From contig JBBQRF010000002.1 in NCBI GenBank assembly GCA_038215155.1, positions 50,712-114,711 on the forward strand: a stretch of DNA of 64,000 nucleotides, written 5' to 3'. The translations under genes were made by a program, and so were the position numbers. The DNA is from Minisyncoccia bacterium. GTDB taxonomy: Bacteria > Patescibacteriota > Minisyncoccia > Phycocordibacterales > CAJBRS01. Below the pieces are notes generated by a model that did no database searches, had not been told where the DNA came from, and was given only the letters and a program-made list of their open reading frames with translations. Shown here in pieces: positions 980-63,162 of this stretch. Within the stretch, counting starts at the first letter, position 1; each line of letters starts with the position of its first letter.

Positions 980-2584
980 TTAGATAACCGACATCTTCTT
1001 AGGTCGATACTGCAAGGCTTCTAAAATATGCTTCGGCTCTATTTTTTTAGCACGATCTAAATCAGCAATTGTTTGAGCTAGTTTAATTAAACGATGATAG
1101 GCCCGGGCAGAAATGTCTAATTGATAGGCGGCCTTGTCTAAAATTTCTTTGACCTCGTGGTCTAGAGAGATTATATTTAATAAGTCACGGGGTTTTATTT
1201 CACTATTTGTGTGAATGAATATTTTATTTTGTTGAAATCGTTTGGCAGCGAGCTCTCTAGCTCGGATTACTCTTTTACGAACCACTTCTGTGGTTTCTCC
1301 AGAAATTTTGGTTCCTAATTTTTTATAATCTACTTCGCTGACTTCTAACCAAATATCCACTCTATCAATTATAGGGCCCGAAATTTTCCTTTCGTAACTT
1401 AGTAGATTGGGCGCGCGACAAATGCATTCTCTTTTTGGATTTCCCCGATTACCACAAGGGCATGGATTCATGGCAGCAATTAAAATAAAATTAGCTGGAA
1501 AAATGGCCGAGCTCTTTGCTCTTGCAACACTCACCACCTTTTCTTCAAGAGGTTCTCTCAATGAATCTATAACTTTCCGGTCAAACTCGGGGAATTCATC
1601 CAGAAACAGTACTCCCTTGTGAGCTAAAGTCACTTCTCCCGGTTTTGGAGTGGTACCGCCGCCAATTAATGAAGGGTAGGAAGAAGTATGGTGCGGTGAG
1701 CGAAAAGGTGCTCTTAAAATAAGAGGCTGATCTTTTAAGAGGCCGCAGACAGAATGAATTGATGTTACTTCCAGCATATCTTTAAAAGAAAGAGGAGGGA
1801 GGAGATATGAAAAAGCTTTAGCCAACATAGTTTTTCCAGTACCCGGAGGACCAAACATAATGACATTATGAGCACCGGCAGCAGCAATCTCTAGGCCGCG
1901 CTTAGCTTTCTCCTGTCCCTTAATATCGGCAATATCAATTTCCGGCGCCCCTGCCTCTTCTTTTATTTTTGTTTGTGGAGCGGAAATAATTTTAATTGAA
2001 GGAATGCAGGGTATTTCAGAGTTGGAGTTAGACGCGCCCGCAGGATCTGGCGGCGGGCGCGTATTCAAATGAGAAATTGCATCGCTTAATTTTTCTAATG
2101 GAAAAACTTTAATTCCGGAAATAATGGCTGCTTCTGAAGCATTCTCTTTAGGAACAAAAATATCCCGAAAACCTTTTCTCTTTGCTTCAATTACTAATGG
2201 CAGAACTCCTTTAATAGGTCGCAATTTTCCATCTAAAGCCAATTCTCCTAGGAAAAGTTTATCAGCGGGATCGAAGCGGATATCATCTGCGGCTAAAAGA
2301 TAGGCTAACGCCATAGCCAAATCAAAAGTCGGCCCCTCCTTTCGAATGTTAGCTGGAGCAAGTGCAATGACCACTTTTTGATTTTTATTTTTAGGAGAAG
2401 TAAAACCACTATTTTTAATAGCGGCCCCTATCCTGTCCTTGGCTTCTCCAATTGCTTTATCGGGTAATCCCACAATAGAAAAATTATAAAGTCCTTTTGA
2501 AAGATCAACCTCCACATCAATAATGCGCGCCTTAAGAAGATAGCTTTGAGCGCTAAATACTTTTGAAAAACTCATGCCGTCCAA
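980..2584 (-). CDS. comM: YifB/ComM family Mg-chelatase-like AAA+ ATPase (competence-associated)
   Basis: Lon-like N-terminal domain. Walker A GPPGTGKT and Walker B LFLDEF. C4 cysteine cluster CPCGNRGNPKRECIC, typical of the YifB family. Confidence 0.85.
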   Translation of the reverse strand: MDGMSFSKVFSAQSYLLKARIIDVEVDLSKGLYNFSIVGLPDKAIGEAKDRIGAAIKNSGFTSPKNKNQKVVIALAPANIRKEGPTFDLAMALAYLLAADDIRFDPADKLFLGELALDGKLRPIKGVLPLVIEAKRKGFRDIFVPKENASEAAIISGIKVFPLEKLSDAISHLNTRPPPDPAGASNSNSEIPCIPSIKIISAPQTKIKEEAGAPEIDIADIKGQEKAKRGLEIAAAGAHNVIMFGPPGTGKTMLAKAFSYLLPPLSFKDMLEVTSIHSVCGLLKDQPLILRAPFRSPHHTSSYPSLIGGGTTPKPGEVTLAHKGVLFLDEFPEFDRKVIDSLREPLEEKVVSVARAKSSAIFPANFILIAAMNPCPCGNRGNPKRECICRAPNLLSYERKISGPIIDRVDIWLEVSEVDYKKLGTKISGETTEVVRKRVIRARELAAKRFQQNKIFIHTNSEIKPRDLLNIISLDHEVKEILDKAAYQLDISARAYHRLIKLAQTIADLDRAKKIEPKHILEALQYRPKKMSVI

Positions 2585-2629
2585 TTATAAATCGGACGGC
2601 ATGAGTTTCTTCTAAAGAAAAGTTAAATT

Positions 2630-2995
2630 TTAAGAAACCTTTTGATTGAGATGAGTCTTACAAGTACGGGCAGCCGCATTGGCTTCTAATCTTTCTATTT
2701 CAATATCTTTACCACAAACTTCACATTTTCCGTACTCTCCTTTCTCCATTTTTTCTAAAGCCAGATTAATATCTTGTAATTGGGGTTCCAACTTGCTCAT
2801 TATGGCTGCATCTCCCTCAATACTCTCGATCTTATCAGCCACCTCATTACGATCAGCAGAAAGAATATCTAAATTCTCGGCGATTGGTTCCCAGTCATTG
2901 GGGTTGTTAGGGTTCTGCCGGCTAACTCCTGACAATTCGCTAATCAAAGTTTCTTTTTCCTTCTCTAATTTTTCTTTAAAGTGATTTGTATCCAT
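2630..2995 (-). CDS. DksA/TraR family C4-type zinc-finger protein
   Basis: N-terminal coiled coil plus C-terminal CxxC-(17)-CxxH finger (CEVCGKDIEIERLEANAAARTCKTH). Confidence 0.75.
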   Translation of the reverse strand: MDTNHFKEKLEKEKETLISELSGVSRQNPNNPNDWEPIAENLDILSADRNEVADKIESIEGDAAIMSKLEPQLQDINLALEKMEKGEYGKCEVCGKDIEIERLEANAAARTCKTHLNQKVS

Positions 2996-3007
2996 GGAGT
3001 GATTTTA

Positions 3008-3925
3008 TTAGTTATTTCCCCTATTAGCAAGGTAACGACTAAGAATTTCATCAAAGGCGTTCTGACTTTTTACGAAAATTATAGTCGCGGGATCAATAAA
3101 AGAATAAATAAAAGTAGGATTACCACCATCTTCTAAAAGAACTCTAGCGTCACGATTATCGATAATTCTATCGACAAATGTTCGAGCAGAAGAAGTGGCG
3201 GAGTCAGTCGGCAAATTAAAAAGAGAACCAAGATCGTTAGAAATATTAGGTTCCCATTGGAGCATTCCCGGAAAAGCATTGGCATACGAATCACTTTTAA
3301 GGATGAGAACAGGTTCATTGCCTGAACTATTTTGATAATAACCTACAATGTAATCATTTTGGATGGATCTAAATAGATTGCCTGGCATGCGGCTCTGTAG
3401 AAGATTAAGGAAATTCGGAGCATTTAGATGTTCGCGAGCCGAGTGGCCATTTTGCGCGTCTAAATTACCTTTAACAGTAATTATCACATTTTCAATCGAA
3501 CCACTTTCTAAGATACTCTTATTGGCAACTAACCCATGAATTAGTCCATCCAATGTAACGTTATCGAGCTTCAACTCTACTGTTTTGTCGGTGACAATGA
3601 TTGTTCGAGCGACAGCCACTGGAAGAACGGTGTTGTTATGAGGACGGAAAATAAAATATCCCACAATGGCTAAACCAGAAGTAACTAAAATTGCACTAAG
3701 AATGATGAGGACAATACGTTTTTTGGATTCGGTAGATACTTCTTCGCTAGCTACACCCTGTCTTTCTTGACGACGTTTTTCCGCCACGGCCATTTTAATA
3801 ACGGAAACGTTGTCTCGTTTAATAGCCTCTGCCACATCAGTTTGGTAGGTTTTAATATTTCTTAACGGCTCTTCCGCCTTTTCTTTTTTAGCTTTTTCTA
3901 AGGCTTCTTCTAAATCAGAACTCAT
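3008..3925 (-). CDS. Hypothetical single-pass membrane protein
   Basis: One TM helix (RIVLIILSAILVTSGLAIVGYFIF) after a charged N-terminus. No recognisable catalytic motif. Confidence 0.5.
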   Translation of the reverse strand: MSSDLEEALEKAKKEKAEEPLRNIKTYQTDVAEAIKRDNVSVIKMAVAEKRRQERQGVASEEVSTESKKRIVLIILSAILVTSGLAIVGYFIFRPHNNTVLPVAVARTIIVTDKTVELKLDNVTLDGLIHGLVANKSILESGSIENVIITVKGNLDAQNGHSAREHLNAPNFLNLLQSRMPGNLFRSIQNDYIVGYYQNSSGNEPVLILKSDSYANAFPGMLQWEPNISNDLGSLFNLPTDSATSSARTFVDRIIDNRDARVLLEDGGNPTFIYSFIDPATIIFVKSQNAFDEILSRYLANRGNN

Positions 3926-3953
3926 TCTTTAATTTTATATTAAAGCGACATTA

Positions 3954-6056
3954 TTACGAACTAGGATTTTTGATGAAGTTAGGATCAGCGCGTTTGATCG
4001 AAAGACTAATGCGTCCCCTATCATCCACCTCTTTCACTACTACGGGCACGCGATCACCCTCTTTTAAGATTTTACTAACATCCTCCACTCTGAAAGAAGC
4101 TATCTCAGATACGTGAACCAGGCCTTCCGTACCACTGCCAATCTTAACAAAAGCTCCAAAATCCATAATTTTAATTACGATTCCATCAAATTTTTCTCCA
4201 GCTTTATATTCATGAGTCATTTCCGCAATAATGATTTTTGCCTTTTCAGCAGTTCCTTCTTTGCCTGTAATGTAGACCGTGCCGTCATCCTCAATATCAA
4301 TTTCTGCTCCAGTCTTCTCTTTAATTTCTTTAATAGTTTTACCACCCGAGCCGATAATTAATCCTATTTGGTCAGGTTTAATTTTAATAGAGAGAATTTT
4401 TGGTGCCTTAGGTGAGATGTCTGTGCGAGGAGCGGCAATAGCTTTTTCAATAACATCGAGAATTTGTAGGCGCGCCCGCTCCGCCGTTTCAAAGGCCTTG
4501 GCTAATATAGAAAGTGGAATACCATCTACCTTAACGTCCATTTGAACGGCCGTAATACCGGCGCGAGTGCCTGCCACTTTAAAATCCATATCGCCATGAT
4601 GATCTTCCGGGCCCTGGATGTCTGTAAGAAGAACATAATTTTTCTCATCCCTCATCATTAATCCCGAGGCAATGCCCGCCACTGGCGCTTTAATCGGCAC
4701 ACCTCCATCCATTAAAGCTAAAGTCGAAGCGCAGACAGAACCCATGGAGGTAGAGCCATTGGAAGCCATTGATTCCGAAACTAAACGAATGGTGTAGGGA
4801 AAACTTTCTTTTTCGGGAATAACAGCTAACAGAGCTTTTTCGGCTAAATTACCATGACCAATCATGCGACGATTCAATCCTCCCATTCGGCCCGTTTCAC
4901 CGGTAGAGAAAGGTGGAAAGTTATAGTGATGAAGGAAACGCTTATCGGTCTGTAACTCCATTCCATCAATAGTTTGAGTATCTCCAGGGCCGCCTAAAGT
5001 AAGAGCAGAGAGAACGTGAGTGCCCCCACGGTAGAATATGCCGGATCCGTGAAGCATAGGCGAAAGGCCGCCGGCTTCGGCAAAGAGGGGTCGGATTTCT
5101 TCGAGGCCCCGGCCATCAGGCCGGCGCTTTTTCTCGATAGCTTCTCGGTGAATAATGTCATTCACTTTTTCCTCAAAATACTCACTTGAAAGAGACATTT
5201 TCTCGTCCGGGAATTTTTCAATATATAATTTTACCCATTCTTCTTTTAATTCTTCAGATTTTTTCTTTCCTGGTCCGGAGAAGACGGCGGCTTCAAGTTC
5301 CGGTTCAATTTTTTCAGTAAATAATTCGGCTCCTTTTTCGGGGAAATTTAAAAATTCTAGTTTTGTTTTCTCTTTGCCAATTTCTTGAATGATCTTTTTT
5401 TGAAAAGTTTGAATTTTTTCAATTTCAGCGGCAGCCAATTCTAGAGCCGCGGTGGCAAGCGTATTAGAAATTTCTTTAGCCCCCACTTCAATCATATTAA
5501 TATTGCCGTCTTTACCACAAGCCACTAAGTCAATATTAGAAAACTCTCTGTCCTTGTATATCGGATTGATTAATAAATCATTTTCACCTTTGCGCTGACC
5601 GACTCGAACGGCACTTACCGGCCCTCTCCAAGGAATATTAGAAGTGCTGAGAGCTAAAGAAGCGGCAATGACAGCCAAGACATCAGGATCATCTTCCTCA
5701 ATGGATAAAATCATAATTACTACCTGTACATCATTTCTAATTCGCTGATCAAATAGGGGGCGAATGGTGCGATCTACCACTCTTCCAGAAAGAATAGCCT
5801 CGTCAGAAGGCCGCCCTTCGCGGCGAGTGAACTGACCGCCGAGAATTCGGCCGGCCGCATAAAATTTTTCCTCGTAATCAACAGTAAGAGGAAAGAAGTC
5901 ACCATCCTTGAGCTTTTTCGACATCACTGCCGAAGCAAAGACTAATGTATTCCCGTAACGTATCAAAACAGATCCATTAGATTGTTCGGCTAAATCATTA
6001 AACTCAGCCGTCAGAGTTTTACCTCCGAGCTCCATAGAAAATTGCTTTTTTTGCAT
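3954..6056 (-). CDS. pnp: Polyribonucleotide nucleotidyltransferase (PNPase)
   Basis: Two RNase PH domains plus C-terminal KH (IGLIIGSGGKTIKEI) and S1 (GIVIKIMDFGAFVKI) domains. Conserved rpsO-pnp neighbourhood. Confidence 0.95.
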   Translation of the reverse strand: MQKKQFSMELGGKTLTAEFNDLAEQSNGSVLIRYGNTLVFASAVMSKKLKDGDFFPLTVDYEEKFYAAGRILGGQFTRREGRPSDEAILSGRVVDRTIRPLFDQRIRNDVQVVIMILSIEEDDPDVLAVIAASLALSTSNIPWRGPVSAVRVGQRKGENDLLINPIYKDREFSNIDLVACGKDGNINMIEVGAKEISNTLATAALELAAAEIEKIQTFQKKIIQEIGKEKTKLEFLNFPEKGAELFTEKIEPELEAAVFSGPGKKKSEELKEEWVKLYIEKFPDEKMSLSSEYFEEKVNDIIHREAIEKKRRPDGRGLEEIRPLFAEAGGLSPMLHGSGIFYRGGTHVLSALTLGGPGDTQTIDGMELQTDKRFLHHYNFPPFSTGETGRMGGLNRRMIGHGNLAEKALLAVIPEKESFPYTIRLVSESMASNGSTSMGSVCASTLALMDGGVPIKAPVAGIASGLMMRDEKNYVLLTDIQGPEDHHGDMDFKVAGTRAGITAVQMDVKVDGIPLSILAKAFETAERARLQILDVIEKAIAAPRTDISPKAPKILSIKIKPDQIGLIIGSGGKTIKEIKEKTGAEIDIEDDGTVYITGKEGTAEKAKIIIAEMTHEYKAGEKFDGIVIKIMDFGAFVKIGSGTEGLVHVSEIASFRVEDVSKILKEGDRVPVVVKEVDDRGRISLSIKRADPNFIKNPSS

Positions 6057-6102
6057 ATTAATTCTATTTAGACTAACACAAAATACAATATAGAAAAAAC
6101 TA

Positions 6103-6627
6103 CTAACCTCGCTTTCTATTTCCCGTGCTCATTAAATATTTTCGCGGAGCAACATCTAGATCTAAAAAATCATCTACTGCCTCTTTTAATTTTCCGGATG
6201 CTGATTTACCAAAGGAAACCCCTTCCACCTGGCAGCCATTCATTTGTAGATATTCCACTAAAGGGATGAAGTCACCATCGCCAGAAACTATTACTACTGC
6301 ATCAATCTTAGGAGCTAGTTTTATAGCATCTACGGCGAGACCGACGTCCCAATCGCCCTTTTTTGAGCCACTGGAAAAGACCTGGAGGTTTTTAGTTTTA
6401 GTCTCAATACCCATTTTTACTAAGGCCTCAAAGAAATTTTTCTCGTCCCCCGCTTCGGTAGTAATTACATAGGCTACCGCCCGGACCAATATTCGTCCTG
6501 CTAAGGCATCTTTTAAGATGGCGGCAAAATTTACCCGCGCTCGATAGAGATTTTTTGCACTATGATAAAGATTTTGAGCATCAATAAAAATCCCAACGCG
6601 TTGTTCTTTATGTTTGATAACAGCCAT
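6103..6627 (-). CDS. NYN/LabA-like (PIN-fold) domain protein
   Basis: VGIFIDAQNLYHSAKNLY N-terminus and the acidic residues of the NYN family. Confidence 0.75.
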   Translation of the reverse strand: MAVIKHKEQRVGIFIDAQNLYHSAKNLYRARVNFAAILKDALAGRILVRAVAYVITTEAGDEKNFFEALVKMGIETKTKNLQVFSSGSKKGDWDVGLAVDAIKLAPKIDAVVIVSGDGDFIPLVEYLQMNGCQVEGVSFGKSASGKLKEAVDDFLDLDVAPRKYLMSTGNRKRG

Positions 6628-6962: not shown

Positions 6963-7898
6963 ATGTTTTACGACATGGACCTATTAGAGCTCAAACGACA
7001 GTTTCTCGAGCATGTAGAAATTGAAAAAGGCCGGAGTCTCAAAACCGTCAGGAATTATGAACACTATTTAGATAGGTTTTTTGAATTTTCTAAAATAAGC
7101 ACTCCCTCGGATATCACGGAAGAGCTCATTCGTCAGTACCGTCTCTGGTTGAATCGTCAGTCTGACGGGAAAAATGGGACATTAAAAAAACGAACGCAGA
7201 ATTATTACTTAATTGCTTTGCGCTCTTTTTTAAAATATTTAATCAAACGTAAAATCCCTTCTCTTTCACCCGACACTATTGAATTGGCAAAAGTGCCTGA
7301 TCGATCATTGGATTTAATTGGTCACGAAGATCTAAAGCGATTACTAGTGGCTCCGGAATCGGAGAAAGATGAACTAAAAGGCCTGCGAGACAAAGCTATT
7401 TTAGAATTGTTTTTCTCTACTGGCCTGCGTGTTTCCGAGTTATGCTCTCTTTCCCGTGATTTGGACCTGAGAAAAGACGAATTTTCCGTTAGGGGTAAGG
7501 GAGAAAAAGTACGAGTTGTTTTTCTATCTAACGAGGCGAAGGCTGCTATAAAAAAATATTTAGATAAGAGAGTGGACGTAGAAGATGCCCTTTTCGTCCA
7601 ATTAAAAAACCCGATTGGTAAGAAAGAGGAGGCCAAAGAACTGAGTCGGCTAACGGCGCGCTCTATAGAGAGAATCGTCAAATATTACGCTGTCAAAGCG
7701 GGAATCTCCAAAAAGGTTACTCCTCATGTCATTCGTCATAGCTTCGCCACTGACCTCTTAGAGAACGGCGCGGACCTACGCGCCGTTCAAATGCTTCTCG
7801 GCCACGCTAATATTACTACTACTCAAATTTACACCCATATTACCGACAAGCATCTAAAAGAGATCCATAAGAACTTCCATAATAGGAGAAAGAACTAG
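6963..7898 (+). CDS. xerC: Tyrosine site-specific recombinase XerC/XerD family
   Basis: C-terminal catalytic box HVIRHSFATDLLENGADLRAVQMLLGHANITTTQIYTHI with conserved R..HxxR..Y. Confidence 0.9.
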   Translation: MFYDMDLLELKRQFLEHVEIEKGRSLKTVRNYEHYLDRFFEFSKISTPSDITEELIRQYRLWLNRQSDGKNGTLKKRTQNYYLIALRSFLKYLIKRKIPSLSPDTIELAKVPDRSLDLIGHEDLKRLLVAPESEKDELKGLRDKAILELFFSTGLRVSELCSLSRDLDLRKDEFSVRGKGEKVRVVFLSNEAKAAIKKYLDKRVDVEDALFVQLKNPIGKKEEAKELSRLTARSIERIVKYYAVKAGISKKVTPHVIRHSFATDLLENGADLRAVQMLLGHANITTTQIYTHITDKHLKEIHKNFHNRRKN

Positions 7899-8609: not shown

Positions 8610-9383
8610 ATGAAAATCATCTCTTGGAACGTCAATGGCATCCGCGCCTGGCATAAAAAGGGCTACCTAGATTGGTTTCTTAAGGAAAAACCGGACTTTT
8701 TCTGCCTCCAGGAAACAAAAGCCCATCCCGATCAACTCACCGAAGAACTGCGTAACCCCCTTGGCTATCATTCATACTTTGACCACTCTAAAGGGCGTAA
8801 AGGCTATAGCGGAGTGGCAATCTACACACAGCACGAACCAGAAAAGATTGATTATGGATTAGGAATTAAGGCATTAGACCAAGAGGGTCGTTTCCTCGCT
8901 CTCTATTATAAAGATTTTGTGCTCATCAACATTTATTTTCCAAATGGTGGAGGGGGGCCTGTGCGGCTAAAATACAAACTTCAGTATTACAAGGCGTATT
9001 TAAAGTATGCCGATAGTCTAAGAAAAAAGGGCCTAAGAGTAATATTTTGTGGAGATGTTAATACCGCTCATACGGAGATAGATCTCGCCCGCCCTCGCGA
9101 AAATGCCAGTCATACGGGGTTCTTACCCATTGAGAGGACTTGGTTAGATAAAGTGGTAGAGCACGGTTATGTAGATGTTTATAGGCACTTTTATCCTCAT
9201 CGCACGGGCGCCTATACTTATTGGGATAATTATAGCTTTGCTCGGGAGAGAAATGTGGGCTGGAGAATAGATTATTTTTTCGTAAGCCCAGAACTTATCA
9301 AAAAAGTTAAACAATGTGAGATTTTAGATCAGGTACATGGTTCCGACCACTGCCCTATCCTTCTTGAGATCGACTTATCATAA
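8610..9383 (+). CDS. xth: Exodeoxyribonuclease III (AP endonuclease, ExoIII/APE1 family)
   Basis: MKIISWNVNGIRA N-terminus, ...LQETK..., and C-terminal GSDHCPI. Confidence 0.92.
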   Translation: MKIISWNVNGIRAWHKKGYLDWFLKEKPDFFCLQETKAHPDQLTEELRNPLGYHSYFDHSKGRKGYSGVAIYTQHEPEKIDYGLGIKALDQEGRFLALYYKDFVLINIYFPNGGGGPVRLKYKLQYYKAYLKYADSLRKKGLRVIFCGDVNTAHTEIDLARPRENASHTGFLPIERTWLDKVVEHGYVDVYRHFYPHRTGAYTYWDNYSFARERNVGWRIDYFFVSPELIKKVKQCEILDQVHGSDHCPILLEIDLS

Positions 9384-9925
9384 ATTCTTTATTCACTCCG
9401 TTAGCATCTCTTTTCCGAGAGGTCGGAAGCCCGAATTCTCGGCAAAAGAGACGCTAATTTCGTTCATAAAGAAAACCAGACTTTAAGAATGAGGGTCACG
9501 AGTGCAGGTCGTAAGTCTCGGAGACCGAATTCGGTCCTCCGACCTCGGCGAAGAGATTTACGACGGAACGAGAGACCCTCTATAAAATAAGTTATCCACA
9601 CCTATGTCCTTTACATGTCCTTTAGAAACCATTACTATACTCAGTAGATCTTCTAGCAGCAATCGCTATTAATCCCTCTTGGCGAAAGCAGCTAAAATGT
9701 CCTTTACAATAAAGGTCATCTTGGAAATTATTTTCCTGGGTTGAATTATCAAATTTTTAAAAGGCTATTTAATAGGAAAGACGCCTCTACGGAGATATCT
9801 CTTCTGTTAAAATTACTTATTGGATTCAAATCCCGCGAAACTTTCACTCGATGACGCTTTACTCAAAAGCCGCACAGCGCTTATCAATAATGTCGCTTGC
9901 GGCTTTTTTCATTTGTATTTTTCCC

Positions 9926-11419
9926 CTACTCCACCCAGTATTTTTTCCTAATCTCTTTTACCTCTTCTTCCTCCATTTTCTCCTTAACCTTTTTGCCTTT
10001 TTCCCCCATTTTTCTTAATTCTCCTTCGGAAAATTTGCTTAATTCAATAGCCTTACCCTCTAGATATTTTTTAGTATTTAAGATCGGATCATCCAAGACT
10101 TCTTCCAATAAGGCGTGCAAAATATAGCCAATTTTAGGTCCCGAAGGGAGCTCGGCGACTTCCATTATTTGACCGCCGTTAATCTTAAGCATAGAAACGG
10201 AAACTGGGTCGTGCATCACTTCTTCAATCATGGATTTATATTTGCGTAACCGGTAAGGATTTTCTTTAGGTCTCCCGGTGCCTACCCGATCACAGATACG
10301 TAAATTCATTAAATTCCAAACATTTTCTTTTCCAACATTTTTTACCAATCTTCTGACGGCGGAAAGGGTAATTTGCTCTGTATCAGAAAAGAACATATGC
10401 CAACGAACTAGTTTCGCAACCTCGTCAATAATTTTTTTAGGGAATCTTAAATCGCCAAGAATTTTTTTAGCCATTCTTTCCCCCACTACGTCGTGTCCAT
10501 AAAACGTCCAATCCCCTTTTTCATTAGACCACCTTCGGGCGTGCGGCTTAGCAATGTCGTGAAGTAACGCAGCCAAACGAATTTCCAATGACCAACCCTT
10601 ATCCGCGGCGGCCTGGAAACTTTTTAGGAGATGCTCAAAGACATCATAAGCATGAGCTTGATTTTGCTTAATCCCTTCCGCTTTGGCTAATTCGGGAATG
10701 ATAAATTTTAAAATACCTATATTATTAGCCATATTTAGGGCATTTGCTGGTTTCTGTGACATAGTAATGCGGACAAACTCTTCTCGAATTCTTTCTTTGG
10801 CGATGTTCTTTAAGAGACTGGCATCGTTTTTGATTGCTACCTCAGTGTTACTTTCAATTTTAAAATTGAGCTCGGCAGCTAAGCGAATAGCGCGAAGAAT
10901 TCTCAAACCATCTTCCTTAAATCGTTCTTCTGGATTTTCCACTGTTCGAATGATTTTTTTCTTTAGATCGCTTTGTCCTTCATATAAATCAACAATTTCA
11001 ACCTCCCACTCCCCTTTTAATTCGTTAAGGAGCTTCAGCGCAATAGCGTTAATGGTGAAATCCCGCCGTTTAATATCATCGGATAGATTGTTGCTAAAAG
11101 TAACATGGTCCGGATGACGATTGTCAGAATAATCAGCTTCTAATCGATAAGGAGTGACTTCTACCACCTTCAGGCTTTCATTAAGCGTTTCCTCACTCAC
11201 CACCCCGACTGTGCCGTAGTCATTTTCATAAAAAGTTTTATCAAAGAGAGAAATAATCTTGTCAGGCGCCGCGTTAGTAGTAATATCCCAGTCTTTAGGA
11301 GCTCTCTCTAATAGAAGATCACGAACACAGCCTCCAATTAAATAAGACTCAAAACCAGCTTTTTCCAGCCGGGCAGTTATTCGTGAAACCTCGAGAGGGA
11401 TGGCAAATTTTTTTAACAT
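9926..11419 (-). CDS. cca: CCA-adding tRNA nucleotidyltransferase with C-terminal HD domain. The track ORF extends to 11551 only by reading through the tRNA-Arg gene. The true start is the MLKKFAIPLE ATG at 11419.
   Basis: GGCVRDLLL nucleotidyltransferase motif, ...DITT..., and HD motif LLHDIAK. Confidence 0.88.
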   Translation of the reverse strand: MLKKFAIPLEVSRITARLEKAGFESYLIGGCVRDLLLERAPKDWDITTNAAPDKIISLFDKTFYENDYGTVGVVSEETLNESLKVVEVTPYRLEADYSDNRHPDHVTFSNNLSDDIKRRDFTINAIALKLLNELKGEWEVEIVDLYEGQSDLKKKIIRTVENPEERFKEDGLRILRAIRLAAELNFKIESNTEVAIKNDASLLKNIAKERIREEFVRITMSQKPANALNMANNIGILKFIIPELAKAEGIKQNQAHAYDVFEHLLKSFQAAADKGWSLEIRLAALLHDIAKPHARRWSNEKGDWTFYGHDVVGERMAKKILGDLRFPKKIIDEVAKLVRWHMFFSDTEQITLSAVRRLVKNVGKENVWNLMNLRICDRVGTGRPKENPYRLRKYKSMIEEVMHDPVSVSMLKINGGQIMEVAELPSGPKIGYILHALLEEVLDDPILNTKKYLEGKAIELSKFSEGELRKMGEKGKKVKEKMEEEEVKEIRKKYWVE

Positions 11420-11433
11420 TGGGCTTTCTACGG

Positions 11434-11505
11434 TGCTCCCGGCAGGACTCGAACCCACAATACGACGTCCGAAGCGTCGCGTGATATCCATTTCACCACG
11501 GGAGC
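11434..11505 (-). tRNA. tRNA-Arg (anticodon TCG)
   Basis: Cloverleaf read on the minus strand. Acceptor GCTCCCG/CGGGAGC, anticodon stem CGACG/CGTCG with loop CTTCGGA, T-arm GGGTTCGAGTCC. Confidence 0.85.
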
Positions 11506-11590
11506 AATTGAGGAATATGAATATCATACGAGAAAAATAGACAAACACCAAGATTTAAATTAAAATTTAAGGACTTTTCTCTAAAGTATT

Positions 11591-11661
11591 GCGGGTATGG
11601 TTTAGTGGTAGAACACGTCCTTGCCAAGGACGAGACCCGAGTCCGATTCTCGGTACCCGCA
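11591..11661 (+). tRNA. tRNA-Gly (anticodon GCC)
   Basis: GCGGGTA acceptor, anticodon loop TTGCCAA, T-arm CGAGTCCGATTCTCG. No encoded CCA. Confidence 0.88.
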
Positions 11662-11903
11662 CATTTAACTAAAGTCCAGTGTCCCTTATTTGTCCTAAAT
11701 ATTAAAAATCTGAAACGGCTCTATCTATAGGTCTTTACATATTTACTGTGGATAAGTCGGGGGATATGTGTATAAAAGACAGGAATTTTGTCCTAAAAAG
11801 GGGTTACCTTAGGATAAATTAAGGCTCGATACCCTTATGTTTCACGTGTAACTAATATAATAAGGTAATCATGAAACTTTAAGGATATTTTAACCTTATT
11901 TTA

Positions 11904-12323
11904 ATGAATTTTCACCTCTCATGCCTTAAGATGTTTCTTGTGAACCATCTTAAAATTGGGAAAATAGGGGAGGATTTAGCTTGCGATTACCTAAAGGAGA
12001 AAGGTTTCTTGGTGGTGAATCGAAATTTTCGTAAAAAATGTGGAGAAATAGACATTGTAGCCAAAAAACAAGGGAAACATCACTTTGTAGAAGTTAAAAC
12101 AGTTTCATGTGAAAATGTCACTAGTTTTGCACGCCGGTCAAACTATTATAGGCCGGAAGATAACATTCATTCTTATAAGATAGCCCGTTTAAGACGGGTA
12201 ATTCAGTTGTATTTGATCGAAAATTATGTAAAAACGGATTGGCAGTTCCACGCTATTACTATTTTATACTCTCCTATCAATAATGAATCGAGAATTGAGA
12301 TGCTGGAAAACCTTGTCCTTTAA
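11904..12323 (+). CDS. yraN: YraN family (UPF0102) endonuclease. The start is possibly at 11931.
   Basis: IGEDLACDYLKEKGF...EIDIV...FVEVKT motif pattern. Confidence 0.8.
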   Translation: MNFHLSCLKMFLVNHLKIGKIGEDLACDYLKEKGFLVVNRNFRKKCGEIDIVAKKQGKHHFVEVKTVSCENVTSFARRSNYYRPEDNIHSYKIARLRRVIQLYLIENYVKTDWQFHAITILYSPINNESRIEMLENLVL

Positions 12324-12468
12324 AATGTCCTTTATAATATAGAGCTATTTTATTTCGGGGCGCCGGGAAAATATGGTAAAACTAGCTCCACCATAATTTT
12401 GAGTTGGTTGTCTCTTTACCATAGATTTATTCTCCCCGGTTGTAATTTCCGGGTTCGAATCCCTCCCT

Positions 12469-12541
12469 TCGGGGCGCCGGGATTCGAACCCGGAGTCGCT
12501 TGATCCCAAATCAAGAATGTTAGCCGTTACACCACGCCCCG
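12469..12541 (-). tRNA. tRNA-Pro (anticodon TGG)
   Basis: Minus-strand cloverleaf. 7-bp acceptor CGGGGCG/CGCCCCG, anticodon loop TTTGGGA, T-arm CCGGGTTCGAATCCCGG. Confidence 0.85.
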
Positions 12542-25029: not shown

Positions 25030-25043
25030 ATAGAGGTATTAAA

Positions 25044-26638: not shown

Positions 26639-27253
26639 ATGAAAAAATTATCAAGTTTATCGATGTCAGTAAGTGTAGTAATAGTAGCGATCTTTATTAG
26701 CGCATTCTGTAGTTATGTATTGGCGGATTCTTACTCTGCACCCAGTACTAATCCTCCTGGAGGTAATATTTCTGCTCCAATTAACACCTCAGGATCTGGT
26801 CAGATTAAGAGTGGAGGATTAACGGTTAATCTAGGGGGAGGAACTAACGGATTAATAGTAGCTTCAGGGAAGGTAGGAATTGGCACTATTAACCCAGCCC
26901 ATTCAATAGATGTCGTTGCCACTGGTGCTGACGGTATTGTTCAAGCGGTTGGATTTTATTACGCATCCGACTGGAACTTAAAACAAAATATTCTGCCCTT
27001 AAAAGATTCTTTGAATAAGATTACTCAACTGCAAGGAGTTTCTTATAATTGGAAATCAAGCGGAGCACCTGACGTAGGATTAATAGCCCAAGATGTTCAG
27101 AAAGTATACCCTCAATTAGTTACTTCAAATGCCACAGGATTAGCAGTAGATTACGGCCACTTAATCGGACCAATGATTGAAGCGATTAAAACGCAGCAAC
27201 TAGAAATTGATCAATTAAAAGCAGAAATTGAAGCTATAAAAGCTCATCGATAA
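26639..27253 (+). CDS. Secreted protein with a C-terminal intramolecular-chaperone auto-processing domain (peptidase S74 / tail-fibre chaperone-like)
   Basis: SDWNLKQNILPL...VSYNWK...GLIAQDVQKVYPQLV...VDYGHLIGPMIEAIKTQQLEIDQLKAEIEAIKA is the classic phage tail-spike/endosialidase C-terminal chaperone-domain pattern. Confidence 0.65.
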   Translation: MKKLSSLSMSVSVVIVAIFISAFCSYVLADSYSAPSTNPPGGNISAPINTSGSGQIKSGGLTVNLGGGTNGLIVASGKVGIGTINPAHSIDVVATGADGIVQAVGFYYASDWNLKQNILPLKDSLNKITQLQGVSYNWKSSGAPDVGLIAQDVQKVYPQLVTSNATGLAVDYGHLIGPMIEAIKTQQLEIDQLKAEIEAIKAHR

Positions 27254-46937: not shown

Positions 46938-48143
46938 ATGGCAGAGACTTTTGATAGATCAAAACCTCACGTCAACGTTGGAACTATTGGTCACGTTGAC
47001 CACGGAAAGACCACTACTACCGCCGCTATTCTTCACGTCCTTGGAAATCTCGGAAAGGACAAAGGTTATAGCGCTCGAGTAGAAAATGTAGATGGTATTG
47101 ATAATGCTCCTGAAGAGAAGGCCCGAGGAATTACTATTGCCCTTCACCATTCTGAATACGAGACTCCAAACCGTCACTACGCTCACATTGACGCCCCTGG
47201 TCACGCCGATTACATCAAGAACATGATTACTGGAGCGGCTCAAATGGACGGCGCTATTCTTGTAGTAGCTGCTACCGATGGAGCTATGCCCCAAACTCGC
47301 GAGCACGTACTCTTGGCTAAACAAGTTGGAGTGCCTAAGATGATCGTTTATCTAAATAAGTGCGACATGGTAGATGATAAGGATTTGATTGACCTAGTGG
47401 AAGCAGAAATTCGAGAACTTCTTACTAAGAATGATTTCGATGGAGATAATGCTCCTGTTATCCGAGGTTCTTCTATTAAAGCCCTTGAAGCTAAAAGCAT
47501 TGATGATGAAAGTGCTAAGCCAATTGTAGATCTTATCAACGCTTTGGACACCTACATCCCAACTCCTATCAGAGAAATTGAAAAGCCTTTCCTTATGCCC
47601 GTAGAAGACATCTTCTCTATTGAAGGCCGAGGAACTGTAGTTACAGGGAGAATTGAGAGAGGAAAGGTAAAGGTAGGTGAAGAAATAGAAATCATCGGAC
47701 TTCACCCTACTACCAAGACCACTATTACTGGAATTGAAATGTTCAATAAATCTTTGGCTGAAGGTCTTGCTGGAGATAATGCTGGAATCTTACTCCGAGG
47801 TACTAAAAAGGAAGACGTACATCGTGGTCAAGTTTTAGCAAAGAGTGGTTCTGTCACTCCTCACACTGAATTTGAAGCTGAAGTCTACATTTTGAAGAAA
47901 GAAGAAGGTGGCCGACATACTCCATTCTTTACTGGATACAAACCTCAGTTCTACATTCGAACTACTGACGTAACTGGAGAAGTAACTCTAAATGAAGGAG
48001 TAGAAATGGTTATGCCGGGAGACACTGTTACTTTCAAAGTAAAATTGGTTGCACCGGTTGCTCTTGAAGAAAAACAACGCTTCGCTATTCGAGAAGGTGG
48101 AAAGACAGTGGGCGCTGGAGTAGTTACTAAGATTACCGCGTAG
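46938..48143 (+). CDS. tuf: Elongation factor Tu
   Basis: [18 protein letters not shown]...DAPGHADY... Confidence 0.98.
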
Positions 48144-48235
48144 AAGTCCATAAAGTTTTTAAAGTCCTTAAAGTTATTCTTGTCGCAAGACAAAAAACTT
48201 TAAGGACGTTGAAAACACTAAGGACCTTATAGCCT
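48144..48235. repeat. Palindromic intergenic element of the GTCC(W)TAAAG family in the tuf-rpsJ spacer
   Basis: aagtccataaagtttttaaagtccttaaagtt...aactttaaggacgt inverted repeat with a central ttgtcgcaagacaa hairpin. Confidence 0.7.
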
Positions 48236-59463: not shown

Positions 59464-60234
59464 ATGATTAAACTAAAGACAGCAGAAGAAATTAAAAAAT
59501 TGCGTCAAGGAGGAAAAATCCTTGCCGCCATTCTCAATGAAATTGCCGGACGCCTTGTGCCCGGTACCAATACTAAGGACCTCAATGTTTTCGCTGATGA
59601 GCTTTGTAAGGCACAGCAAGTTATTCCTGTTTTTCTTAACTATCAGCCTGAAGGCGCCGCTCGACCATACCCTGCTTCAATTTGTATTTCAATTAATGAT
59701 GAAATTGTTCACGGCATTCCCAATAAGGGAAGTGGCCGAATTTTAAAAGAAGGAGATATCGTTTCTCTAGACATGGGCATTAGTCATGACGGAATGATTG
59801 TTGATAGTGCTATTACATTTGGCGTAGGAAAGATTGATGATTCCGCTACGAGATTATTAGCGGCGGGGAAGGAGACCCTGGCGGCGGCTATCGCCGCCGC
59901 CAGGGTCGGCAGCCGCACCGGCGACATCGGTGCGGCCATAGAAGCCGTTGCTACTCGCGCTGGCTTCACCCTTCCAGAAGAGCTCGGCGGCCACGGCGTC
60001 GGCCACGCCGTTCATGAAGACCCTTTCATTCCAAATTTTGGCAAAGCCGGGGAAGGAGTGATACTTAAAGCTGGCATGGTTCTCGCCATTGAGCCCATGC
60101 TCAATGAAGGTAGCAAAGAAACCTTTGTAGATAAAGACGGTTACACTTTTCGTACCACAGACGGCAAGAGAAGCTGCCATTTTGAACACACTATTGCCAT
60201 CTCTGATAAAGGACCAGAAATATTAACTAAATAA
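59464..60234 (+). CDS. map: Methionine aminopeptidase type I
   Basis: Pita-bread fold metal ligands D..D..H..E..E (ISLDMG...HGIP...EPM). Confidence 0.93.
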   Translation: MIKLKTAEEIKKLRQGGKILAAILNEIAGRLVPGTNTKDLNVFADELCKAQQVIPVFLNYQPEGAARPYPASICISINDEIVHGIPNKGSGRILKEGDIVSLDMGISHDGMIVDSAITFGVGKIDDSATRLLAAGKETLAAAIAAARVGSRTGDIGAAIEAVATRAGFTLPEELGGHGVGHAVHEDPFIPNFGKAGEGVILKAGMVLAIEPMLNEGSKETFVDKDGYTFRTTDGKRSCHFEHTIAISDKGPEILTK

Positions 60235-63052: not shown

Positions 63053-63162
63053 GGAAAATCCTCCTATGTCCTAAGACTTTTGTCGAGGCGCGTCAGTCAA
63101 TTTGGGTCCGCTAGGCCAAGTCTTACCCTCGCTAAAAGTCTCAGGACACATCCGGATTTTCC
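63053..63162. repeat. Copy 2 of the palindromic repeat element (see 20585-20662), here with extended outer inverted repeats (ggaaaatcc...ggattttcc)
   Basis: Core of about 64 nt is roughly 90% identical to copy 1. Nested inverted repeats. Confidence 0.8.

Follow-up and report, generated by a model that had tools for sequence, protein, structure and literature searches.

A candidate small RNA gene and an adjacent 89-nt palindrome insertion between the convergent xth and cca genes of a Minisyncoccia bacterium

Introduction

What occupies the 540 bp between two convergent genes of a bacterium from the candidate phyla radiation (CPR), and do the many inverted repeats of this gap belong to one structure or to several? 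The question arises at positions 9384-9925 of a 64,000-nt stretch of DNA (hereafter, the window) from contig JBBQRF010000002.1 of a Minisyncoccia bacterium (assembly GCA_038215155.1), where xth, encoding exodeoxyribonuclease III, and cca, encoding the CCA tRNA nucleotidyltransferase, end facing each other. Because the flanking genes are convergent, the gap cannot be a 5' untranslated region (UTR), a point correctly made in the original prediction, which was derived from the sequence of the window. That prediction proposed instead an independently transcribed small RNA (sRNA), for example, 6S or signal recognition particle (SRP)-like, a set of stacked terminators, or a landing pad for repeat elements, and described nested, long-range pairings within the region.

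The 542-nt region folds better than shuffled sequences, with z = -7.5 on the + strand and z = -5.0 on the - strand. Our analysis indicates, with a probability of roughly 0.6, that the gap combines two features unrelated to each other, namely, an sRNA gene (9592-9910) and a pair of palindromic repeats (9385-9580). The proposal of an independent sRNA stands for the right half of the gap, which combines a conserved promoter block, covarying helices and a terminator in a unit that is inverted in one relative, but not for the left half. The latter better fits the landing pad, holding two copies of a palindromic repeat that were inserted in this lineage only. A single nested, long-range structure across the whole 540 bp is not supported.

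A predicted sRNA gene in the right half of the gap

The unit at 9592-9910 is conserved in ~10 genomes and is probably a lineage-specific sRNA gene that is apparently transcribed on its own. Relative loci were fetched and are designated here by L-numbers. The related Xth proteins are 58-84% identical to the one encoded in the window, and all come from metagenome-assembled genomes (MAGs) named Paceibacteria, Paceibacterota or 'Saccharibacteria'; the homologues carry the name exodeoxyribonuclease III. In L022, Xth is 84% identical and the gene order is shared with the window; L038 is the same contig as L022, and L043, L044 and L045 encode identical Xth proteins. The convergent arrangement of xth and cca is found in 17 of the 21 relatives, with an intergenic gap that ranges from 7 to more than 2000 nt.

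The unit opens with a promoter-like block on the + strand. A DnaA-box-like 9-mer, TTATCCACA (9592-9600), lies 4-5 nt upstream of a -35-like repeat and is followed by a segment (9604-9638) that was delineated by a promoter scan, repeat enrichment and conservation, and that starts with the tandem 11-bp repeats ATGTCCTTTAC / ATGTCCTTTAG (9604-9625). These helically phased repeats, of the form TGTCCTTTAnA, supply the -35-like hexamer TTTACA (9610-9615), which is separated by a 17-nt spacer from the -10-like hexamer TACTAT (9633-9638). The three ATGTCCTTTACA copies reported in the original prediction were all recovered, two of them in this block (9604 and, with one mismatch, 9615) and the third at 9697; with at most one mismatch allowed, this sequence has four matches in the window against 0.38 expected, a count reached in none of 100 shuffles.

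The same block directly follows xth in L022, L023/L024, L018, L001, L004/L005, L006, L042 and L043-45, and its parts come in the order TTATCC(A/C)CA, 4-5 nt (longer in L004-6), TGTCCTTTACA, one or two more phased copies of TGTCCTWTA, and a -10-like hexamer. The 9-mer is kept as TTATCC(A/C)CA in every homologous locus and accompanies the GTCCT repeats in every locus with the RNA; the composite motif was found nowhere else in the window or in the fetched loci searched, save one loose match in L013. A predicted promoter of the sigma-70-type layout, with hexamers 16-18 nt apart, is present in L018 (TTTACA-18-TATAAT), L043 (TTTACA-17-TATGAT) and L022 (TTTACA-17-TATCAT), and in L018 and L023, three phased copies of the repeat reach the -10 position. 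The promoter repeats of L043 are arranged as a perfectly matched inverted pair, TTGTCCTTTACAA-AC-TTTGTAAAGGACAA. The block appears to be constrained as DNA because synonymous-type variation is absent. A candidate peptide starting with MSFTCP was rejected as a translated promoter repeat, which shows no synonymous variation and ends at a different downstream stop codon in each genome. Furthermore, the relatives have no open reading frame (ORF) in common, and the insertions and deletions that separate the window from L022 are not multiples of 3.

The predicted sRNA is ~265 nt long (9645-9910, + strand), with the 5' end placed from the position of the -10 hexamer and the 3' end at the U-tract of the terminator. 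It would begin with a hairpin, HP1 (9654-9694), that displays a 15-nt apical loop, UAUUAAUCCCUCUUG (9667-9681), the core of which, AUCCCUCU, is invariant in four genomes. A second, local hairpin, HP2 (9697-9719), joins the third ATGTCCTTTACA copy to its inverted partner TAAAGGTCAT. A long-range helix is predicted between UAAAGGUCAUC (9710-9720) and GAUGACGCUUUA (9850-9861), the latter being located just upstream of an intrinsic terminator (9865-9909), which was recognized as an inverted repeat with covariation and consists of the stem AAAAGCCGCA...TGCGGCTTTT and an inner helix followed by T6. Homologues of the RNA body were detected by nhmmer in L022, L018 and L023 (E-values of 1e-43 to 1e-53). 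In the relatives, the stretch downstream of the promoter measures 190-390 nt and finishes with a G+C-rich stem, the U-tract of which is on the strand of the promoter. Single-sequence folds of all 10 homologues contain a 5' hairpin, a large domain closed by an internal long-range helix, and a 3' terminator hairpin, and minimum free energy (MFE) predictions for the distant loci suggest a broadly similar layout of hairpin, helix-closed domain and terminator in most of them.

Comparison of the folds with those in related genomes, which the original prediction had suggested as a check, revealed covariation in the helices and terminator of the right half, and compensatory changes in the hairpin repeat of the left half as well. 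In an alignment of four sequences, the long-range helix (10 pairs) is 95% paired, with 2 compensatory changes, and 6 of the 14 pairs in the terminator helices show such changes. For the long-range helix and the two-part terminator combined, pairing amounts to 96.9% and 8 pairs show compensatory changes, a result that was obtained in none of 500 shuffles, and the slid controls yielded 35-49%. The G-U pairs of the covarying helices exist on the + strand only. In HP1, each of the 7 predicted pairs shows at least one double change, the stem being wholly different between two sub-groups, and HP2, which competes with the long-range helix, is well formed in L018 and L023 but has decayed in L022. The terminator stem (GCCGCA...TGCGGC) runs directly into T6; the terminator scan missed this site because the loop with its inner helix exceeds the 8-nt loop limit of the tool. 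Among the relatives, the U-tract is consistently found on the sRNA strand, and, in L018 and L023, on the + strand only.

In L041 (2330-2780), where Xth is 73% identical, the whole promoter-RNA-terminator unit is inverted, with the promoter beside cca and an RNA of ~390 nt. The orientation of the unit is, in this locus, independent of its neighbours. The sequence GGATTCAAATCC (9822-9833), described as T-loop-like in the original prediction, is present in the window, but neither ARAGORN nor Rfam detects anything there that would support a tRNA-like nature; in single-sequence MFE folds, it pairs mainly with 9738-9747, as the 3' strand of an internal helix, and its counterpart in L022 reads GGATTCAAACCC.

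Several observations weigh against an sRNA gene. The covariation comes from only 4 alignable RNA sequences; in L001, L004-6 and L041-43, the promoter, terminator and overall architecture recur, yet the sequence itself cannot be aligned, and an alignment that included the distant L001, L004, L006 and L002 (six sequences) was too divergent for consensus folding. The RNA as such is a prediction from sequence, and so are its start site and the activity of its promoter. Finally, the 9865-9909 stem could serve cca on the - strand too, where it is accompanied by TTTT, and the terminator could serve cca alone.

An alternative is that the whole gap is 3' UTR, with the two palindromes of the left half (H1 and H2, described below) and the 9865-9909 stem acting as stacked terminators or stabilizers of the xth and cca mRNAs, and no RNA gene present. 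The positions of the palindromes, with H1 beginning almost at the xth stop codon and the L022 copy abutting the cca stop codon, are compatible with this explanation, as are other long hairpins directly after stop codons at 48146 and 63053 and the T runs that follow the 9865-9909 stem on both strands. We nevertheless consider it unlikely, in view of five lines of evidence: neither H1 nor H2 is followed by a U-tract, and no terminator was detected there by the scan; relatives that lack H1 and H2 still keep 200-400 nt, opening with the strongly conserved promoter-like block; the U-tract of L018 and L023 is confined to the + strand; the unit of L041 is inverted as a whole; and the internal helices covary with + strand G-U pairs. 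An sRNA gene is, accordingly, the preferred reading of the right half.

An 89-nt palindromic repeat in the left half of the gap

The left half of the gap contains two copies of an 89-nt imperfect palindrome. The first, H1 (9385-9473, + strand), starts 1 nt past the xth stop codon and folds with -39.4 kcal/mol (z = -8.0). The second, H2 (9492-9580, - strand), is inverted and more diverged (~56% identity to H1), and was recognized by nhmmer, by an 18-mer core and by its fold (z = -4.3 on the + strand and -2.3 on the - strand). The fold energies range from -39 to -44 kcal/mol for H1 and from -37 to -43 kcal/mol for H2, and an 18-nt spacer (9474-9491) that holds CAGACTTTAAG separates the two copies. 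The 18-mer core of H1 recurs in the window only as H2, the core of which is its reverse complement (0.04 occurrences expected). A profile of the repeat detects H1 with E = 8e-23, H2 with E ~5e-19 to 7e-19, and a third copy, in L022/L038, with E = 1e-20. This third copy sits on the other side of the sRNA gene from the copies in the window, past the RNA terminator and so close to cca that it starts with the G of the stop codon of that gene.

The inverted arrangement of H1 and H2 accounts for the long-range pairings of the original prediction. The segments ggtcggaag (9421-9429) and cctccgacc (9536-9544) are indeed complementary, as part of 30-nt arms that match at 80%, but they do not form a nested long-range helix: the apparent pairing over ~120 nt arises because the 89-nt element is present twice in opposite orientation, as H1 and H2, each forming a hairpin of its own. 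The ccgaga/tctcgg pair (9415-9420 / 9437-9442) is the apical stem of H1, and gtcgtaagtctc / gagatttacgac (9508-9519 / 9553-9564), which enclose ggagaccgaa/ttcggtcctcc as described, together with the latter make up H2.

All three copies are exactly 89 nt long and have an identical dot-bracket layout, with an outer stem, a 2+2 internal loop, a 2-bp stem, a 3+3 loop, a long bulged stem and a 4-nt loop. Between H1 and the L022 copy, 98.6% of the cells in the 36 pairs are paired and 10 pairs are changed on both sides, 7 of these being located in helix 1 (the outer stem and the adjacent 2-bp stem); none of 500 shuffles was as good, and the slid controls were 38-54% paired. The apical ~45 nt of these two copies are nearly identical. 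Given the compensatory changes and the near-identical apex, the element appears to be kept by selection on pairing, with the apex constrained in sequence as well.

When the region from the 3' end of xth to the promoter is aligned, the ~197-nt block with H1 and H2 is present in the window only; in L022, L023, L018 and L001, the distance from the xth stop codon to AGTTATCC(A/C)CA spans only ~10-25 nt. To judge from this alignment, the block was inserted downstream of the xth stop codon, ahead of the sRNA promoter, and in this lineage only. The CAGACTTTAAG of the spacer between H1 and H2 resembles GCAGACTTCTAAG, the spacer between the xth stop codon and the promoter in L022. The former is thus possibly ancestral, which weakly hints at two separate insertions flanking an old spacer. 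At the same spot, L043, L044 and L045 carry a different short palindrome, TTTCCAAGGAAGGTCCTTGGA, with varying copy number; the number of TTTCCAAGGAAGGTCCTTGGA and CCTTGGAA repeats differs between these strains (L043 2355-2395, L044 2355-2450 and L045 1656-1696). Because other, strain-variable palindromes occupy this position in L043 and L044, the term 'landing pad' seems apt, and, with L045 included, the spot between xth and the promoter appears to gather palindromes repeatedly.

Searches for further copies were negative. The nhmmer profile of the hairpin found no more 89-nt copies in the 64-kb window or in the fetched relative loci. A scan of JGI metagenomes with the degenerate hairpin core GAGGTYGGARGVCCRAATTC returned 16 loci, among which the sole true copy was L038, that is, the L022 contig; the other 15 were rejected as chance matches on unrelated, mostly high-GC contigs. 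Two scans of viral contigs for the hairpin gave 0 matches, and a blastn search in the 'distant' mode, with the 542 bp as query against phage and plasmid records, was also without a match. A sliding-window MFE scan for additional hairpins of this type was undiscriminating, with many GC-rich coding windows scoring well too. As Rho-independent terminators, H1 and H2 also fail: H1 is followed by AACCAGAC and H2 by TATAAAAT, neither of which is a U-tract, and the terminator scan reported 0 sites, so that, of the stacked terminators initially envisaged, only 9865-9909 resembles an intrinsic terminator.

Could the 89-nt hairpins be known substrates of recombination or transposition, that is, integron attC sites, classical miniature inverted-repeat transposable elements (MITEs) or repetitive extragenic palindromic (REP) sequences? 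Like attC sites, they are located right after stop codons, and their structure is conserved beyond sequence; moreover, the L022 copy (GTCTAAC...GTTAGAC, flanked by TA/TA) fits the attC R''/R' consensus, RYYYAAC/GTTRRRY, and a tyrosine recombinase gene lies 1.5 kb upstream in the window. Each of these identities is, however, distinctly unlikely. The copies in the window do not match the R''/R' consensus, their outer stems being TTCTTTAT/ATAAAGAA in H1 and GAGGGTC/GACCCTC in H2. The recombinase (6963-7898) is XerC/D-like, scoring 245/244 bits with XerD/XerC and 133 bits with the integron integrase model TIGR02249 (cut-off 265), and the same gene is found in relatives without the hairpins. The would-be terminal repeats of a MITE differ at 7 of the 10 helix-1 pairs between H1 and the L022 copy, and the outer stem of H2 is a third, unrelated sequence; among the 3 known copies, TA/TA is seen only at that of L022, and there is no clear target duplication at H1 or H2. 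As for REPs, these are abundant and 20-40 nt long, in contrast to the 2 copies in 64 kb, with none in the fetched loci besides L022. Because the terminator, MITE, REP and attC identities all fail, we classify the 89-nt hairpins, on the strength of the copies compared, as a low-copy, lineage-restricted palindromic repeat.

Some caution applies to this classification and to any function at the RNA level. The family is known from three copies in two genomes, for which mobility and local rearrangement are both possible, and the covariation of the hairpin rests on only 2-3 sequences. Since folding is about as good for one strand of each copy as for the other, a role at the DNA level is as compatible with the data as one at the RNA level. 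If transcribed as part of the xth 3' tail, H1 and H2 would form very stable hairpins. By analogy with REPs, they probably act either in the protection of the 3' end from exonucleases or in blocking read-through before the sRNA promoter; genes for PNPase and RNase Y are present in the window.

Two other long hairpins, at 48146-48225 and 63053-63162 (85 and 110 nt; z = -8.2 and -5.7, respectively), start 3-4 nt after the stop codons of genes with ends at 48143 and 63049. Both lack homology to H1 and H2, and contain palindromic GTCCTTAAAG / TGTCCTAAGAC-type motifs.

The DnaA-box-like site and the phased repeats

The 9-mer TTATCCACA, which we take to be a canonical DnaA box, raises the alternative that the conserved block is not a promoter but a DNA-level element of replication or partition, with a DnaA box and iteron-like 11-bp repeats marking a chromosomal origin. 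The box is conserved, and a conserved pair of boxes at 11747/11767, 2.1 kb away, forms the densest DnaA-box spot of the window. All 7 exact TGTCCTWWA sites of the 64 kb map to the + strand within 9605-12334 (2.7 kb, three intergenic regions). In addition, the gene strands change from all - (980-6627) to nearly all + (from 25044), and the cumulative GC skew has its minimum at ~12 kb. An origin here is nevertheless very unlikely. There is no cluster of the kind expected of oriC at 9384-9925: the xth-cca gap holds one perfect box (two boxes in L018) plus two sites with 2 mismatches, and the gap at 11700-12100, which scores higher, still contains 2-3 boxes. No dnaA or dnaN was found among the window proteins scanned, and the flanking genes converge rather than diverge. 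The switch of strand and skew falls somewhere within 6.6-25 kb of the window, and, because GC skew follows the coding strand, it does not provide independent evidence of an origin. In the conserved block, the -35 and -10 hexamers stand at a proper promoter spacing, and a covarying RNA with a terminator comes after it.

Several related observations concern these motifs beyond the xth-cca gap. GTCCTWWA favours intergenic DNA, with 10 of its 16 sites in 14% of the sequence. In the gap between the tRNA-Gly gene and yraN (11733-11800), the DnaA-box-like pair consists of TTATCCACA and TTATACACA, located on the - strand 20 nt apart and flanked by GGTCTTTACA and TGTCCTAAA motifs. The same pair is found in L018 (6864/6884), L022 (6342/6362), L001 (3364/3385) and L004 (7547/7567), that is, in five genomes including the window, and may serve as another promoter of the regulon or belong to an origin. 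The phasing of the 11-bp repeats over the -35 position resembles that of activator sites of the OmpR/PhoB type; no OmpR-type regulator or dnaA was detected among the 30 window proteins scanned.

Class and possible mode of action of the sRNA

The Rfam scan suggested with the original prediction did not match any family in the gap. At the gathering threshold, Rfam 15, the models of which include 6S (RF00013), bacterial SRP, RNase P, tmRNA and YrlA, detects only 4 tRNAs in the window, all outside the gap; at E <= 10, a comparison of 9200-10100 with 4227 families gives only chance-level matches (12-20 bits against cut-offs of 43-139), and at E <= 1, nothing was found within the xth-cca gap in 10 relatives. 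ARAGORN identifies no tRNA or tmRNA in the gap. The '6S or SRP-like' assignment is therefore not upheld, with no Rfam match even at E <= 10 and a fold that is not the 6S-type rod. It is highly improbable that Rfam has missed a diverged housekeeping RNA of CPR bacteria here (6S, SRP, RNase P or tmRNA). The strongly conserved promoter, the terminator and a length range of 190-390 nt that overlaps 6S RNA would suit such an RNA, and 6S models are known to miss divergent lineages. Against it, the searches of the window and the relatives gave no match; the 5' end forms its own hairpin and the 3' end a terminator instead of a 5'/3' closing stem around a central bubble; and motifs of SRP domain IV, RNase P P4 or a tRNA-like end are missing on direct reading. 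Moreover, the gene is absent from several relatives with only 7-99 nt between xth and cca, a surprising pattern for an essential RNA, unless its gene has been relocated.

How might a lineage-specific sRNA of this kind act? By analogy with sRNAs that carry C-rich motifs, it could be a trans-acting regulator that pairs through unpaired UCCC/CCUC segments with G-rich, Shine-Dalgarno-like sites. The invariant, pyrimidine- and C-rich loop sequence AUCCCUCU of HP1 would contact G-rich ribosome-binding regions, the long-range helix would close a variable domain, and the Rho-independent terminator would end the transcript; transcription would be set by a factor that binds the DnaA-box-like site and/or the phased repeats. 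We offer this as the likeliest mode of action, but tentatively: the sRNA gene itself is probable, the mechanism doubtful. Consistent with it, UCCC occurs 20 times in the 10 homologues (9.9 expected) and CCUC 19 times (10 expected), the complements GGAG and GAGG are not enriched, although GGGA is, about twofold (8 vs 4.1), and the HP1 loop motif is present and unpaired in 4 genomes. Other observations speak against it: the C-rich loop is not universal, being weak or absent in L041 and L042, and a search of the window for complements of the HP1 loop gave nothing above chance, the near-complement beside a start codon at 25032 not being significant.

A bolder interpretation, which strikes us as rather unlikely, is that the RNA would be an undescribed regulatory class of Paceibacteria, with a promoter hard-wired to the replication initiator (through the DnaA box at ~-45) and to an activator that binds the phased repeats, and that the hairpins would be a new, structure-defined kind of mobile element that lands at stop codons, with an attC-like logic but without an integron. 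On this view, an sRNA of ultra-small CPR bacteria would be tied to the cell cycle or to a two-component signal.

Neighbouring genes and other features of the window

The left neighbour, xth (8610-9383, + strand), matches TIGR00633 with 309 bits (cut-off 99) and ends with TAA at 9381-9383. The right neighbour, cca, occupies 9926-11419 on the - strand, with its stop codon at 9926-9928. The mechanically delineated cca ORF (9926-11551) is overlong by 132 nt upstream, extending through a tRNA-Arg gene (11432-11505, - strand); the real start is the ATG at 11419 (MLKKFAIP...).

Between yraN and a tRNA-Pro gene on the - strand lies a stretch (12340-12494) in which the 3' end of the tRNA-Pro, TTCGGGGCGCCGGGA, is directly repeated, at 12354 and 12467, and in which 12448-12463 and 12479-12494 form a perfect 16-nt inverted copy of the tRNA-Pro T arm. 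It is preceded by TGTCCTTTA-AAA-TGTCCTTTATAAT (12314-12338). On the + strand of this stretch, neither ARAGORN nor Rfam makes a call; it looks like a scar of tRNA-gene duplication or integration, or else an unrecognised small RNA. A similar palindrome is located beside a tRNA in L004 (8173-8258). A very G+C-rich, near-perfect palindrome, CGGCGGGGAAGGAGACCCTGGCGGCGGC / GCCGCCGCCAGGGTCGGCAGCCGCACCG (59861-59920), lies within a Peptidase_M24 (methionine aminopeptidase-like) gene (59464-60234), where 100-nt windows reach down to -71 kcal/mol, which is atypical for a genome of ~41% G+C. Finally, the region at 26639-27253 encodes a 204-aa protein with a Peptidase_S74 domain (an endosialidase chaperone of the phage tail-fibre type) and is followed by a gene for a 257-aa protein without a Pfam match; it may be a phage-derived remnant.

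Significance and comparison with known systems

Few regulatory RNAs were found in the literature for the CPR (Patescibacteria), bacteria with tiny genomes. The xth-cca RNA provides a concrete sRNA candidate that is syntenic, has its own predicted promoter and a covarying structure, and belongs to no Rfam family. The DnaA-box-like 9-mer and the phased 11-bp repeats make up an unusually conserved promoter block that may mark a regulon, with similar motifs clustering in the next two intergenic regions. The 89-nt element is of use for annotation, as such inserts inflate 'structured' intergenic regions. Taken together, the locus offers a candidate new Paceibacteria sRNA family next to an 89-nt palindrome insertion, and does not overturn the current understanding.

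With 6S RNA, the predicted sRNA shares conservation, the lack of coding capacity, apparently independent transcription, and a length of ~200 nt in the shortest homologues, but none of the 10 homologues folds into a rod with a central bubble, there is no match to an Rfam model, and an intrinsic terminator forms the end. Another parallel is offered by the Rsa sRNAs of Staphylococcus that are described under the heading of a 'UCCC motif' (PMC2790875). Like RsaE/RoxS of Firmicutes, the xth-cca RNA is encoded by a stand-alone gene with its own predicted promoter and an intrinsic terminator, folds into several hairpins, and presents unpaired UCCC/CCUC in apical loops, which are here the best-conserved part of the RNA. 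RsaE/RoxS-type sRNAs direct unpaired C-rich motifs against G-rich, Shine-Dalgarno-like sites. The two differ in several respects: there is no similarity in sequence or at the level of covariance models, the RNA of the window is about twice as long, it contains a long-range helix enclosing a variable domain, and its host belongs to the CPR.

The promoter block is reminiscent of OmpR/PhoB-type promoters, such as those with a Pho box or with the TT(A/T/C)ACA repeats of PhoP in B. subtilis, in that 11-bp direct repeats overlap or replace the -35 element. It differs from these in its own repeat, TGTCCTTTAnA, in the inverted copies of L043, in the DnaA-box-like 9-mer upstream, and in that no cognate regulator was identified in the window.

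The 89-nt element resembles integron attC sites in its location directly after a stop codon, in a length within the range of 57-141 nt, in a structure kept by compensatory change, and in the combination of a basal stem, an unpaired spacer, an inner stem and bulged bases, with an R''/R' fit in the L022 copy. In contrast to attC sites, the copies in the window lack that consensus, the apex is conserved and the base variable (attC sites show the reverse), and neither an integron integrase nor a cassette array is present. With respect to REPs and bacterial interspersed mosaic elements (BIMEs), the element differs in its length (89 nt as opposed to the 20-40 nt of REPs), in its three copies in two genomes, in the conservation of the apex and not of the base, and in lacking a GTAG motif as well as, in the annotated parts of the window, a gene for a REP-associated tyrosine transposase (RAYT). 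It shares with the REP/BIME and enterobacterial repetitive intergenic consensus (ERIC) sequences of enterobacteria the form of an imperfect palindrome in the 3' flank of a gene, the occurrence in either orientation and as an inverted pair, and the capacity to form a stable hairpin at the 3' end of an mRNA.

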